Assembly: GCA_042219045.1 (NCBI GenBank)
Contig: JBDGQO010000004.1
Coordinates: 25,394 to 89,393 of the forward strand
Reading direction: 5' to 3'
DNA: 64,000 bases
Source: Candidatus Bipolaricaulia bacterium
GTDB taxonomy: Bacteria; Bipolaricaulota; Bipolaricaulia; RBG-16-55-9
Positions 28,501 to 37,500 of this stretch are shown here, piece by piece (the stretch's first letter is position 1; each line of letters begins with the position of its first letter). The position numbers were made by a program.

Positions 28501-31500
28501 GCCACGACGATCGGCAAGCTCCAACAGCTGGCGGCCACCGAGGGACAGACGCTCTGGGCCGCCATGAAGGACGTGGCAGAGCACGGCAGCGACCGTCTCG
28601 GTGGACGTCCCACCCGAGCCGTGACGGCGTTCGTCAAGTTGATGGAGCAGCTGCGCAGGGAGGCGGCGTCGGAGCCGCCGGCGGATGTGGCCCAAACGGT
28701 GTTGGAGCGCTCGGGCTACTGGGCCGACCTGCTCAACGACCCCGACGCGCAGGAGCGGACGGACAACGTCCGAGAGCTGCTCGGTCAGATCAGCGAATAC
28801 CAGGCCAATCACGAGGATCCAACGTTGGCGTCGTTTCTGGAGGAGGTGGCGCTGCTGACGGATGCCGATCGCTTCGAGGACGATGAGGAGCGTGTTGCGC
28901 TCATGACGTTGCACACCGCCAAGGGCTTGGAGTTCGACTACGTGTTCATGATCGGCGTCGAGGAGAACCTGGTCCCGCACAACCGGGCGGTATCCGAAGG
29001 CAACCTCGAAGAGGAGCGTCGGCTTTTCTACGTGGGGATGACCCGCGCGCGCCGTCGGCTCTACCTGTCGTTGGCGCATCAGCGAACGCTCTACGGAAGC
29101 TTGACGTTGAACGGGCCCTCGCGGTTCTTCCAAGAGTTGCCACAGGAGGACGTGGAAAGCATCGCAGCCTGAGGTTGGCAATCCGGGCAACGTCTGTTAT
29201 ACTTAGCGGTCCCGTTCTCTCGCCTGAGAGCGGTTGGGGCGGTTGCAAGCGGCAAAGATGCGCGTCGGCAATGAAGTTTCGAGCATTCCATCGTTAGGTT
29301 TCAAGTGAAGCAGCCACATCTCCGTGCATCCGCGTTACCTGCGTGCAATGCGACAACCCGTGTGCATCGGTCATCGTGCCGAGAACGCTCAGTGGCGTTT
29401 TGGGCATCAAACGCGAGCGGTTCCGTCGCCACAGGAAATTTTGTGACAAGAGGTGACCCCTTTGATTCGAGGCGATGACATCACTCGTATCCGGTTGGGC
29501 CTCGCCTCGCCGGAGGAGATTCGCAGCTGGTCCCACGGCGAGGTCACCGAGTCGGAGACGATCAACTACCGCACCCACAAGCCGGAACGCGGCGGGCTCT
29601 ATGCCGAGGAGATTTTCGGTCCCGAAAAGGACTACGAGTGCGCGTGTGGCAAATACCGCGGACGGAAGTACGAAGGCATCCGCTGCGAAAAGTGCAACGT
29701 GTTGGTGACCACACGTGAGGTTCGCCGTACCAACATGGGGCACATGGAGTTGGCCAGCCCCGTGGTCCACTTCTGGTATCTCAAGGGGCTGTCCAACCCG
29801 CTGAGCACGCTGCTCGGCATCAAGCGCAACGTGCTCAAGAAGATCGTCTATTACGAGACCGAGCCGGTCCGCGACGAGATCGTCGTCGTGACCGCCGCGG
29901 AGAACGGCTCGCCCACAGCGGGAGATTGGCTCTACAAAACCCAGGCCGAGATCCTGAGCCAGAAGCGCGATTTCACCTCCGAGCCCGCGTACGAGCTCAC
30001 CGAGGCGTTCGAGGTGCGGGCTCGCAAGGGCGGCACGGTCTCCTTCGACGAGTTGACCCTCGACAACGGCCAGAAGATGCGCGTCATCCGTGTCGACGGG
30101 GAAGACCACCCCGTTACGCCGGGTGCCATCCTCGAGGTCAAGCCCGACGCCGGGGTCGAGGAGGACGAGATCCTGGCCGTATCGCCCATGGGCCCCGACG
30201 AGCTCGTCTCCGAGAGCCAAGTTGAGTTCCTCAAGTCGGCCTACGACGACATTCAGTTCCAAAAGATCGAGGAGACGGTCGACAACCTGATCTTCCTCGT
30301 GACTCACGTCGACGACCCCGATCTTCCGTTCGACGTCGGCGATCTGCTGCTGGAGACCGAGCTTCGCGCCTATCAGTCGATCTATCCGAAGGGATTCCAT
30401 GCCGCCTCCGGCGCCGACGGCATCGAAGGGGTCCTGGCCAATCTCGATCTCGATACGTGGGCCCAGGAACTGCGCGACCGCATCAACAACGAGACGAGCG
30501 TGGGCCGTCAGAAACGCCTGTTGAAGCGCCTCGAGGTCGTGGATCAGCTGCGCAAGTCGGGCAATCGGCCGCAGGATCTGGTCCTGAAGGTCATTCCCGT
30601 CATGCCGCCCGAGCTGCGCCCGATCGTGCAGCTTGAGGGCGGCAAGTTCGCCACGACGGATTTGAACGACCTCTACCGACGGATCATCAACCGCAACAAT
30701 CGCCTCGGCAAGCTGCGCGAGATGGGCGCACCCGAGATCATCCTGCGCAACGAAAAGCGCATGTTGCAGGAGGCCGTCGACGCACTGATTCACAACGAGA
30801 AGAAGGAGAACCAGATCCTCGGGCGCGACAACCGGCCCTTGAAGTCCCTGAGCGAGCGCGTCCAGGGCAAACACGGGCGTCTGCGACGGAACCTCTTGGG
30901 CAAGCGCGTCGACTACTCTGGGCGGGCGGTCATCGTCGTCAACCCGAAGCTGCAGCTGCACCAGTGCGGCATCCCCAAGAAAATGGCCTTGGAGCTGTTC
31001 AAGCCCTTCATCCTGCGCGAGCTATCGCGCTTGGAAGTGCCCAATATCTCCAACTACGACGAGGTCAAAAACAAGGCGCTTTCCGGGGATCTGCCGCAAG
31101 TCTGGGACATTCTCGATCAGCTTGTCCAGGATCACCCCGTGCTGCTGAACCGGGCGCCGACGCTGCACCGCTTGGGCATTCAGGGATTTGAGCCCGTGCT
31201 CGTCGACGGCGAGGCGATCCAGATCCATCCGTTCGTCTGTCCGCCGTACAACGCCGACTTCGACGGCGACCAGATGGCGGTCCACCTGCCGCTGGCGCCC
31301 GAGGCGATCCGCGAGACGCGCGAGCGGATGCTCGCCTCGAAGAACATTCTGTCGCCGGCGCACGGCAGCCCGTTGACGGTGCCGACGAAGGACTTCGTCT
31401 TCGCGTTCTACTACTACACCATGGAGGATCCGGAGGGCCAGGGGGCCGGCAAGGCCTTCAGCTCGATCCGCGAGGCGGATCGGGCCAACGAGACGGGGGC

Positions 31501-34500: not shown

Positions 34501-37500
34501 GGAGGCGAGCGACGCCGAGACGGTGGAAGGGCGGGCATAAGCGCTTGACAGGAGCTGAGGGGTTGTCTATAATAAGCCCGCTCAGCTCCGCGGGGGCGTC
34601 CCGTATTCTTCGCTGTGAGCTTCGCCCGTCTGCGTCCAAGTATCCGCTCGGCGTCAACGCGAGTTCCAGCTTGCACCGTTGGCCGAGCGTCCCCGGAGCA
34701 CGCGGGACCGAATAGACCTGAAAAAACGAGGTTGAACCACAATGCCGACGATCAATCAGCTAATTCGGAAGGGCCGTAAGACCGAAAGCGAGACGAGCAA
34801 GTCGCCCTCGCTCGACGGGTGCCCACAGCGGCGCGGCGTCTGCACGCGCGTGTTCACGCGCACGCCGAAGAAGCCGAACTCCGCCCTGCGCAAGGTCGCC
34901 CGAGTGCGGCTGAGCAACGGCAAATACGTGACGGGCTACATCGGCGGCGAGGGCCACAACCTGCAGGAGCACTCCATGGTGCTCGTGCGGGGCGGCCGCG
35001 TGCCGGACCTGCCGGGCGTCCGCTATCACATCGTGCGTGGCGCGTTGGACACGGCCGGCGTTGAGGGCCGCCGCACGAGCCGCAGCAAGTACGGGACGAG
35101 GAAGTCGTCCTGACAGCGAGATACGAGGGTTTGCGAGACCGCTATGGCCGACTACCAGATTGACCAGACGCTGGAGAAAACGATCCCGGGTTCGCGGTAC
35201 GGGCGCGACGAGCCCCCGTACCTCCACGCGGATCTGCGCTACGGCAGCAAGTTGGTCGAAAAGCTGATCAACTACGTCATGCAGGATGGGAAGAAGGCGA
35301 AAGCCCGCAAGATCGTCTACGAGGCGCTCGACCTCGCCGAGGAGCGGTCGGGCGAACCGGGACTGGAAGTCTTCTACAAGGCGATGCGCAACGTCATGCC
35401 CAAGCTTGAGACCCGCTCCCGACGCGTAGGGGGCTCTTCGTATCAGGTGCCCTACGAGGTTCCAGACGATCGCCAGAAGACGCTGGCGTTCCGCTGGATC
35501 ACGGACGCCATGCGTCAGCGGGGCGAGCGAACCATGGTCGAACGCTTGGCCGCCGAGCTGATGGACGCCGCCGAGGGGCAGGGCAAGGCATACGACAAGC
35601 GCCAGGAATCCCACCGCATGGCGGAGGCCAACCGGGCCTTTGCCCACTATCGCTGGTAAGCGTGCGAGGTTAAGAGAGGACCGATCTGACTCAACTTTGA
35701 CGGAGTGTTTATGACACAGGCAACGTTGACCAAGGAAACAGCGAAATTCATCGAGAAACTGCGCAACATCGGGATCGTCGCCCACATTGACGCCGGAAAG
35801 ACGACGACCACCGAGCGGATCCTCTTTTACTCCGGGCGCATCCACGACCTCGGCGACATCGACGAGGGCGACACCGAGATGGACTGGATGGACCAGGAGC
35901 GCGAGCGGGGGATTACGATCACCTCCGCCGCGACGCTGACGGAGTGGCGGGGCCATCGGATCAACATCATCGACACCCCCGGCCACGTCGACTTCACGGC
36001 GGAAGTGGAGCGCTCCCTGCGCGTTCTCGACGGCGTCGTCACGGTCTTTTCCGGGGTCGACATGGTGGAGTCGCAGACGGAGAAGGTCTGGCGCCAGGCC
36101 GACAAGTACGACATTCCGCGCATCGCGTACATCAACAAGCTGGATCGTCCCGGCGCGGCGTTCGATCGCACGGTCGAAATGATGGAGGAACGGCTCGCGA
36201 CCACTCCGCTGCCGTTGCAGGTTCCCACGGGCGTCGGCGAGGACCTCACGGGCATGATCGACCTCCTCCACATGGAATTGCTCCTCTGGGACCAGGGCAC
36301 GAAGGGGCTGGAGTACAGCCGCAACGAGATCCCCGAAGAGCACCGCGAGCGGGCGGAATCGATGCGGACGAAGCTGATCGAGTCGCTCGCCGAGATCGAC
36401 GACGACGTCATGGAGAAATACCTGAACGACGAGGAACTCGCCATTGACGAGATCAAAGCGGCAATCCGACGGGTGACGCTCGCCAACGACGGGGTTCCCG
36501 TCTTGGGGGGAACGGCCCTCAAAAACGTCGGCGTTCAACCCATCATCGATGCGATCGTCGACTTCCTCCCCTCCCCGCTCGACCTCCCGCCAGTCAAAGG
36601 CCACGCCACCGCCGAGCCCAGATCCGACGAAGACGGCGCCCCGCAGGAGATTTATCGCCACGCCAGCCCCGAGGATCCACTTACTGCGCTGGCTTTCAAG
36701 GTTGTCACTGACGAGTACGCGGGCCGACTCGTCTTCGTCCGGATCTACTCCGGACGACTGGAAGAGGGCTCCTACGTCTACAACGCCTCCACCGGCAAAC
36801 GGGAACGAGTCGGGCGCATCTTCCAGATGCACGCGGAGAAACGGGAGCAAGTCGAGTACTTGGAGACGGGAAGCATTGGCGCGCTCGTCGGGCCCAAAGA
36901 GGTCACGACGGGCGATACGCTGTGCGACCCCGATCATCCCATTCTCCTCGAAAAGATCGACTTTCCCGAGCCGGTTATTTTCGCGGCGGTCGAACCCAAG
37001 TCCGACGCCGAAGAGGAGAAGCTCAATCAGGCGCTCGGCAAGCTGGCCCAAGAGGATCCGACGTTCCGCGTCACGGTGGACGAGGACACCAATCAGACGA
37101 TTATTGCCGGCATGGGCGAGCTCCATCTGGACATTATCTTCGATCGGCTCCAGCGCGAGTTCAAGACCGAAGCCGCGATGGGCAGTCCGCAGGTCGCCTA
37201 CAAGGAAGCCCTCATGGAGCCGGCGGACATCGAGGAGAAGTTTGTCAAACAGACGGGCGGTCGAGGCCAGTTTGCCCACGTCTATGTCCAGTTCGAGCCC
37301 CTCGAGCGCGGATCGGATTTCGAGTTCGTCAACGAGATTCGCGGCGGCGTCATTCCGCGGGAGTACATCCCGTCCGTGGAGGCGGGCATCAAGGAGGCGA
37401 TGGGCAGCGGGCCGCTGGCCGGATATCCCGTCCTCGACCTGAAGGCGACGCTCTACGACGGCTCCTCGCACCCGGTTGACTCCTCCGAGGGGGCGTTCAA

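Follow-up and report, generated by a model that had tools for sequence, protein, structure and literature searches.

Undetectable RNA polymerase omega subunit, long Rel, Mfd and CarD alongside an intact beta-prime gene in the phylum Bipolaricaulota

The window is a 64,000-nucleotide stretch of contig JBDGQO010000004.1 from a Candidatus Bipolaricaulia bacterium (GCA_042219045.1). It carries rpoC, the gene for the RNA polymerase beta-prime subunit, between a helicase gene and a ribosomal protein operon, with the following features.

27190..29172 (+): UvrD/PcrA helicase gene, immediately 5' of rpoC
29175..29203 (+): putative sigma-70-like promoter TTGGCA-17-TATACT, 5' of rpoC, read from sequence
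29462..34540 (+): rpoC, beta-prime, 1692 aa, with Rpb1 domains 1-5 and four lineage insertions, lacking any omega domain
31250..31270 (+): intact NADFDGD catalytic motif, from sequence
34391..34540 (+): beta-prime C-terminal tail following the last conserved GTG, acidic and of low complexity, 49 residues long
34545..34573 (+): putative promoter with the perfect consensus TTGACA-17-TATAAT, in the rpoC-rpsL gap, from sequence
34742..35113 (+): rpsL, first gene of the ribosomal protein operon
51327..52316 (+): rpoA (alpha), 329 aa, without an omega-sized extension (gene call C40:76720-77709; named by position and sequence likeness)

The rpoC reading frame (29453-34540, +) encodes 1695 aa from GTG 29453 and 1692 aa from TTG 29462, which is the better placed start relative to the AGAGG upstream. 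Counted from this TTG, the length of 1692 aa given in the first-pass annotation is borne out. The C-terminal part of beta-prime, described there as colinear with solved structures, is not fully so, as an insertion is found at ~1511-1578 relative to PDB 8I23, and further insertions are located at ~139-285, ~986-1050, and ~1132-1402. The rpoB gene does not lie in front of rpoC here and is found on contig C33 after rplL, and the adjacency of the UvrD/PcrA gene and rpoC is missing in the single-contig relative G005. The 201-bp gap between rpoC and rpsL, which measures 2-135 nt in relatives, contains no omega-sized gene. The core polymerase parts are present, with rpoB in 75/75 and rpoC in 98/98 genomes, alpha, and an intact catalytic motif.

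The first-pass annotation had reported that the omega gene is absent from this genome and from the phylum, and our searches confirm it. In a six-frame search of the genome, the best match to RNA_pol_Rpb6 (PF01192) scores 11.8 bits and none passes the cut-off. The same holds for all 184 Bipolaricaulota genomes (0/184), including the 71 of high quality (0/71), while the model matches 14 of 14 positive control genomes, Thermotoga maritima included. As the genome itself is 89% complete, the claim of absence is based on the phylum. At E<=0.5, any match at all is seen in 45 of the 184 genomes, the best reaching 23 bits. This match is antisense, part of a 45-codon frame, and falls in a 90-bp spacer, lying across the ribosome binding site of a sigma-factor-like gene, and has been rejected as chance, neither omega nor a relic of it. 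TIGR00690 has no match over cut-off in five genomes. A local omega profile built from seven sequences and run on all six-frame ORFs gives at most 9.3 bits in G005 and 9.8 bits in a second genome, G000, where reversed decoys score 7.3 and 8.0 bits; the leave-one-out scores of 51-85 bits come from omegas of Proteobacteria, Bacillota and Actinomycetota only, and thus do not gauge sensitivity to Chlamydiae- or Leptospira-like forms. The top match of this profile in G005 (E 0.025) appears by eye to be part of a disrupted aminotransferase-like gene. A features search of the ESM Atlas with E. coli omega, a weak test, gives no usable match among unnamed clusters, and a homologue search with the same query retrieves near-identical enterobacterial proteins alone and is thus uninformative. 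Six-frame searches without a length limit show no omega fused to gmk (whose ORFs are mostly ~195-245 aa), alpha, beta or beta-prime.

Gene neighbourhoods give the same picture. The gmk gene is found in 167/184 genomes, and no omega-like gene follows it in 50 loci, so the gmk-rpoZ linkage is not seen. By eye, a yicC-like gene precedes gmk in 49 of these loci and an AcpS-like gene follows it in 32, with no other recurring same-strand ORF around it. In the genome under study, gmk (contig C16) is indeed followed by a CRP-type gene, as annotated, this neighbour being a convergent cNMP gene. No omega-sized ORF precedes coaBC in the three genomes inspected. The small-protein set of G005 contains no omega that we could find; among the 125 small proteins listed as common to G005 and G000, complemented by a relaxed search, all but a few are recognisable, and two unknowns have been searched phylum-wide. 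The larger of these (132 aa) has been rejected as omega, being patchy (29/75 genomes).

The beta-prime tail, which omega grips, is unconserved across the phylum past its first aromatic residue. Among 40 distinct tails, F occupies +1 in 40/40 and P occupies +2 in 22/40, later columns do not exceed 12/40, and the shortest tail has 5 residues. A pattern of an aromatic (+4) and an aliphatic (+7) residue is present in 0/22 whole Bipolaricaulota beta-primes versus 4/7 outgroup tails. This tail signal is not diagnostic, because two mycoplasmas reported to be omega-less retain tails like one another, and because the +4/+7 pattern is also missing in E. coli, Sinorhizobium and Subdoligranulum. The residues equivalent to E. 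coli Q477 and R905 are changed in 22/22 beta-primes, and these changes are common to Fusobacterium, Parabacteroides or Collinsella. Beta-prime is diverged overall, with 63/481 outgroup-conserved positions lost, many of them in the N-terminal clamp region, and changes on the omega face therefore do not stand out.

The reported absence of RelA/SpoT also holds. The synthetase domain (PF04607) has no match in this genome and passes the cut-off in 3/184 phylum genomes, always stand-alone; it is the sole domain of the four synthetase ORFs. The hydrolase domain HD_4 is found in 0/98 genomes, and a search with E. coli SpoT is negative in both G000 and G005. Long RSH proteins, which combine an HD and a synthetase domain, are absent from the phylum. 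The zf-dskA_traR domain is lacking here, as previously stated, and in the order (0/35), but 35/184 phylum genomes have matches over cut-off. Of 38 such matches, the 11 inspected comprise ten FmdE-type proteins (two by Pfam, eight by eye) and one Cas10-like protein (by eye), and no DksA. DksA_N matches 0/5 phylum genomes and 2/14 controls; because of the latter, the absence of DksA can be regarded as ordinary outside the Proteobacteria.

The loss of Mfd and CarD is a point absent from the first-pass annotation. The TRCF domain of Mfd is found in 0/75 genomes and RID, the polymerase-binding domain of Mfd and CarD, in 0/184, while both match in 10/10 bacterial controls. E. coli Mfd as query gives strong matches via the helicase core only, and its match in G005 is RecG. 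The residues of the docking motif on beta, which we take to be the Mfd/CarD contact, are partly eroded, with E kept in 21/22 and K in 8/22. We have found no literature on Mfd distribution that addresses the point. On the other hand, Rho is present in 181/184 genomes, GreA and UvrA in 5/5 each, and a UvrD helicase gene lies within the window. A coupling of omega loss to Rho loss has therefore been rejected. In summary, genes for omega, long Rel, Mfd and CarD are undetectable, whereas those for beta, beta-prime, Rho, GreA and UvrA are found.

Several explanations of these absences can be considered. That they are an artefact of incomplete metagenome bins is scarcely credible, even though most genomes are drafts and the one studied is itself incomplete, because omega is missing from every high-quality genome, two of them single-contig (96% and 99%), and comparable single-copy genes are recovered in 167-181 of the 184 genomes. 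A diverged omega at an unusual locus, escaping both profiles and synteny as in Chlamydiae, has precedents in the chlamydial omega (PMC9973325) and in a Leptospira candidate overlooked by BLAST (PMC13192885 and its Fig. S1 legend). Omega evolves fast and is a small protein, the beta-prime of this phylum has diverged strongly, and structure prediction covered a single small-protein family, while part of the small genes of G005 have no counterpart in G000. We nevertheless consider a hidden omega unlikely, since the chlamydial omega has retained its linkage to gmk and this slot is empty in the 50 Bipolaricaulota loci, the small proteins shared by G005 and G000 are nearly all recognisable, and the beta-prime tail can be reduced to five residues. 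The other unknown small protein (80-100 aa, encoded before leuS) might stand in for omega on the polymerase, as it is omega-sized, belongs to no Pfam or NCBIfam family, and occurs in 173/184 genomes and 71/71 of high quality, nearly always as a single match. This is very improbable. Structure prediction, which covered this one family among the small proteins, gives a winged helix, and the protein is also found in Thermotogota; it is most probably not omega. Its hhalign probability against omega is 0.1%, a PDB sequence search yields matches at E>=0.7 only, and omega is not among the best 50 rows of a fold search, which alone does not exclude likeness.

The first-pass annotation proposed the loss of a single ppGpp-polymerase axis made up of omega, Rel and DksA, with growth control taken over by an expanded set of cAMP/CRP, c-di-GMP and c-di-AMP systems. 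All three are absent, cNMP and cyclase genes are numerous here, and c-di-GMP-I riboswitches are found in 5/5 genomes. The counts for this genome largely stand: 19 cNMP over cut-off, one DAC and six c-di-GMP-I riboswitches are reproduced, and Guanylate_cyc (7, given as 6) and GGDEF (9, given as 7) are close. However, relatives lacking the same genes have modest counts. There are 20 cNMP matches here versus 12, 5, 7 and 5 in four relatives, seven Guanylate_cyc versus 0, 2, 3 and 4, and nine GGDEF versus 1, 3, 3 and 9, with at most one DAC per genome. The expansion is not phylum-wide, and a transfer of growth control is not supported. Furthermore, ppGpp sites 1 and 2 are largely proteobacterial, and the lack of DksA is unremarkable in view of the controls. 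Of the presumed site-1 residues (E. coli numbering), R362 and R417 are each retained by two of the 22 beta-primes and K615 by one, and they are mostly missing in non-proteobacterial outgroups too. Site 1 is placed at the beta-prime/omega interface and site 2 is DksA-dependent (PMC10994330). The losses are also uncoupled elsewhere: Chloroflexi, in which omega is not found (PMC13192885), keep Rel, and Chlamydiae are without RSH (PMC3153485 Table 2) but possess omega (PMC9973325). A single lost axis is thus quite improbable.

Nor is the suggestion supported that this is the first omega-less phylum. No omega has been found in 4/4 Chloroflexota and 4/4 Patescibacteriota (PMC13192885 Table S1), by profile or by follow-up search, phylum-wide and with free-living members included, an absence treated in that paper as a possible false negative. 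Bipolaricaulota resemble both, and differ from Chloroflexi in the loss of Rel. The main text and supplement text of PMC13192885, the Fig. 1A tree aside, do not name Bipolaricaulota. Mycoplasma and Ureaplasma also have no omega, the position after gmk being vacant and none of their small proteins having its fold (PMC9973325), but theirs are host-dependent reduced genomes, some with Rel (PMC3153485), whereas Bipolaricaulota genomes span 0.7-4.1 Mb and encode several sigma factors as well as Rho and GreA. Long RSH is likewise missing from a whole phylum among RSH-less PVC bacteria (PMC3153485), of which the Chlamydiae differ from our case in having omega (PMC9973325). Thermotogota, grouped with Bipolaricaulota (PMC8662615), share the small winged-helix family. 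T. maritima, in contrast, has matches for omega, RelA_SpoT, HD_4, TRCF and RID, which indicates, without a tree, loss on the Bipolaricaulota side. Lineages that have lost either omega or RSH are already known; the additional loss of Mfd and CarD is the new element here.

The best explanation, which we hold to be probable, is that omega, long Rel, Mfd and CarD were lost early on the phylum stem, with no DksA, and that the stripped polymerase is cleared by Rho, GreA and the Uvr proteins. As the genomes are related and not independent, each lost gene counts as one ancestral event. The core enzyme would consist of alpha2-beta-beta-prime, its beta-prime tail left free. A ribosome-linked (p)ppGpp stringent response would be missing, the rare stand-alone synthetases being accessory genes. 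GreA would rescue stalled or lesion-blocked complexes, or else Rho would release them, with Mfd-independent exposure to UvrABC/UvrD. A comparable viable core exists in E. coli delta-rpoZ, whose polymerase is less processive, terminated and dislodged more easily, and suppresses dksA and rho mutant defects (PMC13192885), although this is a laboratory deletion, whereas omega would have been lost long ago in Bipolaricaulota, where the beta-prime tail is eroded. It is possible, and we suggest it tentatively, that the losses are linked via elongation-complex stability and not via ppGpp signalling. If the polymerase comes off more readily without omega, as in E. coli, factors that remove or destabilise it (Mfd, ppGpp, DksA) may become dispensable. 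The omega-Mfd link is our own, because the screen in PMC13192885 did not recover mfd or uvrD. It is a rather doubtful extension that a four-subunit, unlatched polymerase, being readily displaced, led to the joint loss of the factors that destabilise or clear stalled complexes or bind at the beta protrusion (Mfd, CarD, ppGpp, DksA), leaving their work to Rho, GreA and UvrD/UvrA.

If true, this would be a free-living phylum whose repair coupling dispenses with Mfd and which lacks a stringent response. Mfd and Rel are regarded as near-universal in free-living bacteria. With Rho, GreA and UvrA kept, the phylum would show which minimal set is enough to transcribe genes, couple repair and control growth. 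The purpose of omega is still debated, and the Bipolaricaulota polymerase may serve as a natural enzyme for asking whether omega chiefly stabilises elongation complexes, and as a natural test of the model in which omega is a latch.

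A recognisable omega subunit of RNA polymerase is absent across the Bipolaricaulota, as the first-pass annotation had claimed. The omega profile PF01192 has no match over the cut-off in any of the 184 genomes, including the 71 high-quality ones, and all 14 controls are positive. Its best score in the genome that holds the window is 11.8 bits. The second omega profile, TIGR00690, stays below its cut-off in all five genomes searched. The sole 23-bit PF01192 match was rejected: it sits in a 90-bp spacer, antisense, and overlaps the ribosome-binding site that serves a sigma-factor-like gene. 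A profile made from seven omegas, which scores left-out members at 51–85 bits, reached at most 9.3 bits among all six-frame ORFs of the relative G005 and 9.8 bits in the window's genome, not far above the 7.3 and 8.0 bits of reversed decoys. Since these seven come from three well-studied phyla only, the profile sets no bound on very diverged omegas. A search of the Atlas features with E. coli omega against unnamed clusters gave no usable match.

The chlamydial omega was overlooked for years until gmk linkage and folding revealed it, and gmk–rpoZ linkage has been reported in 18,302 of 23,517 genomes (PMC9973325). The gmk gene is present in 167 of the 184 Bipolaricaulota. In 50 gmk loci (the 30 best-scoring and 20 chosen for breadth), the 5' neighbour is a yicC-like gene in 49 and the 3' neighbour an AcpS-like gene in 32, both named by eye; besides these, no same-strand ORF recurs, and the slot is empty. 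No omega-sized ORF precedes coaBC in three loci. CoaBC (DFP) itself has no match over the cut-off in the single-contig genomes G005 and G006 and is present in the window's genome and in the relatives G093 and G099. The whole sequence of G005 (one contig, 1.32 Mb, 96% complete) was also inspected. A simple model called 1288 genes there and 2298 in the window's genome, and comparison of their small proteins, complemented by a relaxed search, gave 125 shared and 141 not shared.

The C-terminus of beta-prime is a contact for omega (PMC13192885). The polymerase genes concerned are the following.

29453/29462-34540 of the window, forward strand: rpoC, Rpb1 domains 1–5
27190-34540 of the window; C33:11860-15183 in the same genome; 635860-640704 and 1136178-1139519 in G005: split rpoB/rpoC loci, by gene order

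The 55 of 110 loci that fit the search pattern yielded 40 distinct tails. After GTG, F follows in 40/40 and then P in 22/40; beyond this the tail is free, with no later column above 12/40 and a shortest tail of 5 residues. The first tail residue is F or Y in all 22 whole beta-primes. None of these 22 carries the aromatic(+4)/aliphatic(+7) pattern, compared with 4 of the 7 outgroup tails parsed (from 8 outgroups), whose omega status is assumed. The tails of E. coli, Sinorhizobium and Subdoligranulum likewise lack the pattern, and two mycoplasmas keep tails similar to each other. As evidence for the loss of omega, the tail lends support but does not settle the matter.

Judged by its sequence, the Bipolaricaulota polymerase is unusually remodelled. 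Of the 481 beta-prime positions that the 8 outgroups conserve, 63 differ in every, or almost every, one of 22 Bipolaricaulota; they spread along the whole subunit, many of them in the N-terminal clamp region. Relative to the outgroups, GLKENVI has become GLKP-N/S/C. Alignment of the window's beta-prime to PDB 8I23 places insertions at residues ~139-285, 986-1050, 1132-1402 and 1511-1578. The changes at Q477 and R905 (E. coli numbering) are shared by Fusobacterium, Parabacteroides or Collinsella, which, like the spread of the altered positions along the whole subunit, cautions against reading too much into the omega-binding face.

The rpoB and rpoC genes are separated in both the window's genome and G005, rpoB following rplL and rpoC preceding rpsL, which adjoins rpoC in most of 55 loci. 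The rpoC gene has a promoter-like site of its own. At 34545-34573, ahead of the ribosomal protein operon, lies a promoter that matches TTGACA-17-TATAAT perfectly and is followed past its -10 box by a G+C-rich stretch, in a genome that would lack ppGpp. Behind secE, in the place of nusG, lies a gene for a protein of 359–369 aa, about twice the usual size (C33:17687-18766; G005 1132998-1134107); the extra length would be a large insertion like that of Thermotoga NusG. Three 100-N scaffold gaps interrupt the window (22285-22384, 49030-49129 and 53744-53843), and at the first of them groEL falls into two frames that share a duplicated overlap, which is an artefact of assembly.

The claimed absences of RelA/SpoT and DksA also hold. 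The Rel synthetase domain PF04607 exceeds its cut-off in 3 of 184 genomes, in four ORFs of 272–373 aa that have it as their only domain (one behind a TAG) and lie in mixed, accessory neighbourhoods.

L163:4464-6565, L164:5854-6972 and L165:6020-6838: stand-alone alarmone synthetases, comprising a tandem pair in the relative G011, one in G145 and one in G072

The G011 pair adjoins a PIN-like gene, and the G072 synthetase, behind the TAG, lies amid defence-like genes. The Rel hydrolase domain HD_4 is missing from all 98 genomes with a completeness of 88% or more, and an E. coli SpoT query has no match in the window's genome or G005. A DksA/TraR finger profile is positive in 35 of 184 genomes; among the 11 of 38 matches inspected none is DksA, ten being FmdE-type and one Cas10-like. 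DksA_N has no match in five genomes and is positive in just 2 of 14 controls.

The first-pass annotation further proposed that growth control had passed to expanded cyclic-nucleotide systems, which agrees with the counts in this genome but not with those across the phylum. Here cNMP matches number 20 (12, 5, 7 and 5 in four relatives), Guanylate_cyc 7 (0, 2, 3 and 4), GGDEF 9 (1, 3, 3 and 9) and c-di-GMP-I riboswitches 7 (2, 5, 5 and 7); DAC is single-copy in four of five genomes. In G005, three c-di-GMP-I riboswitches cluster round a small ribbon-helix-helix gene (1045083-1046763, L146) whose tail resembles, by eye, the c-di-GMP-binding MshEN motif. The observation of the annotation is confirmed, and its interpretation only partly supported.

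A winged-helix protein of 80–100 aa without a family occurs in 173 of 184 Bipolaricaulota and also in Thermotogota, and is a candidate signature protein of both.

C29:153582-153875 in the window's genome (L203:2083-2373); 739321-739569 in G005 (L130:10421-10669): winged-helix protein

Its gene is usually flanked by a secreted-protein gene on one side and by a phosphomutase-like gene plus leuS on the other, and the invariant residues of the protein are Y, E, P, G, W, E, P and P.

Loss of omega makes E. coli polymerase less processive and easier to release (PMC13192885), and release factors were examined for this reason. Rho is found in 181 of 184 genomes (172 over the cut-off), and GreA and UvrA in five of five. 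The Mfd TRCF domain is absent from all 75 genomes searched (those at least 90% complete and the window's own) and the CarD/Mfd polymerase-binding domain (RID) from all 184; both are positive in all 10 bacterial controls. Matches to E. coli Mfd are strong through the helicase core only, and that in G005 is RecG. Mfd docks on the beta protrusion via this polymerase-binding domain (PMC7864632). Among 22 parsed betas (of 27 loci), the E of I-K-E, which we take to be the docking motif, is kept in 21 and the K in 8, suggesting partial erosion only.

Elsewhere, omega is listed as not found in 4/4 Chloroflexota and 4/4 Patescibacteriota (PMC13192885 Table S1) and in Mycoplasma and Ureaplasma (PMC9973325). 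Planctomycetes, Verrucomicrobia and Chlamydiae are given as lacking RSH, whereas Chloroflexi and Thermotogae have Rel (PMC3153485). The two losses are thus known, uncoupled. In the part of the literature covered, no paper was found that states loss of omega, Rel, Mfd or CarD in Bipolaricaulota, or that treats absence of Mfd.

The core polymerase would be alpha2-beta-beta-prime, a ribosome-linked (p)ppGpp response would be missing, and the handling of stalled complexes would fall to GreA, Rho and the Uvr proteins. It is a tentative and rather doubtful idea that Mfd, ppGpp and DksA became dispensable because the enzyme is unlatched; the E. coli screen of PMC13192885 did not recover mfd or uvrD. 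The T. maritima control is positive for omega, Rel, Mfd and the RID domain, and Thermotogota have been grouped with Bipolaricaulota (PMC8662615), so the simplest reading is that all four were lost on the Bipolaricaulota stem. The loss of Mfd and CarD, overlooked in the first-pass annotation, adds interest to those of omega and Rel.
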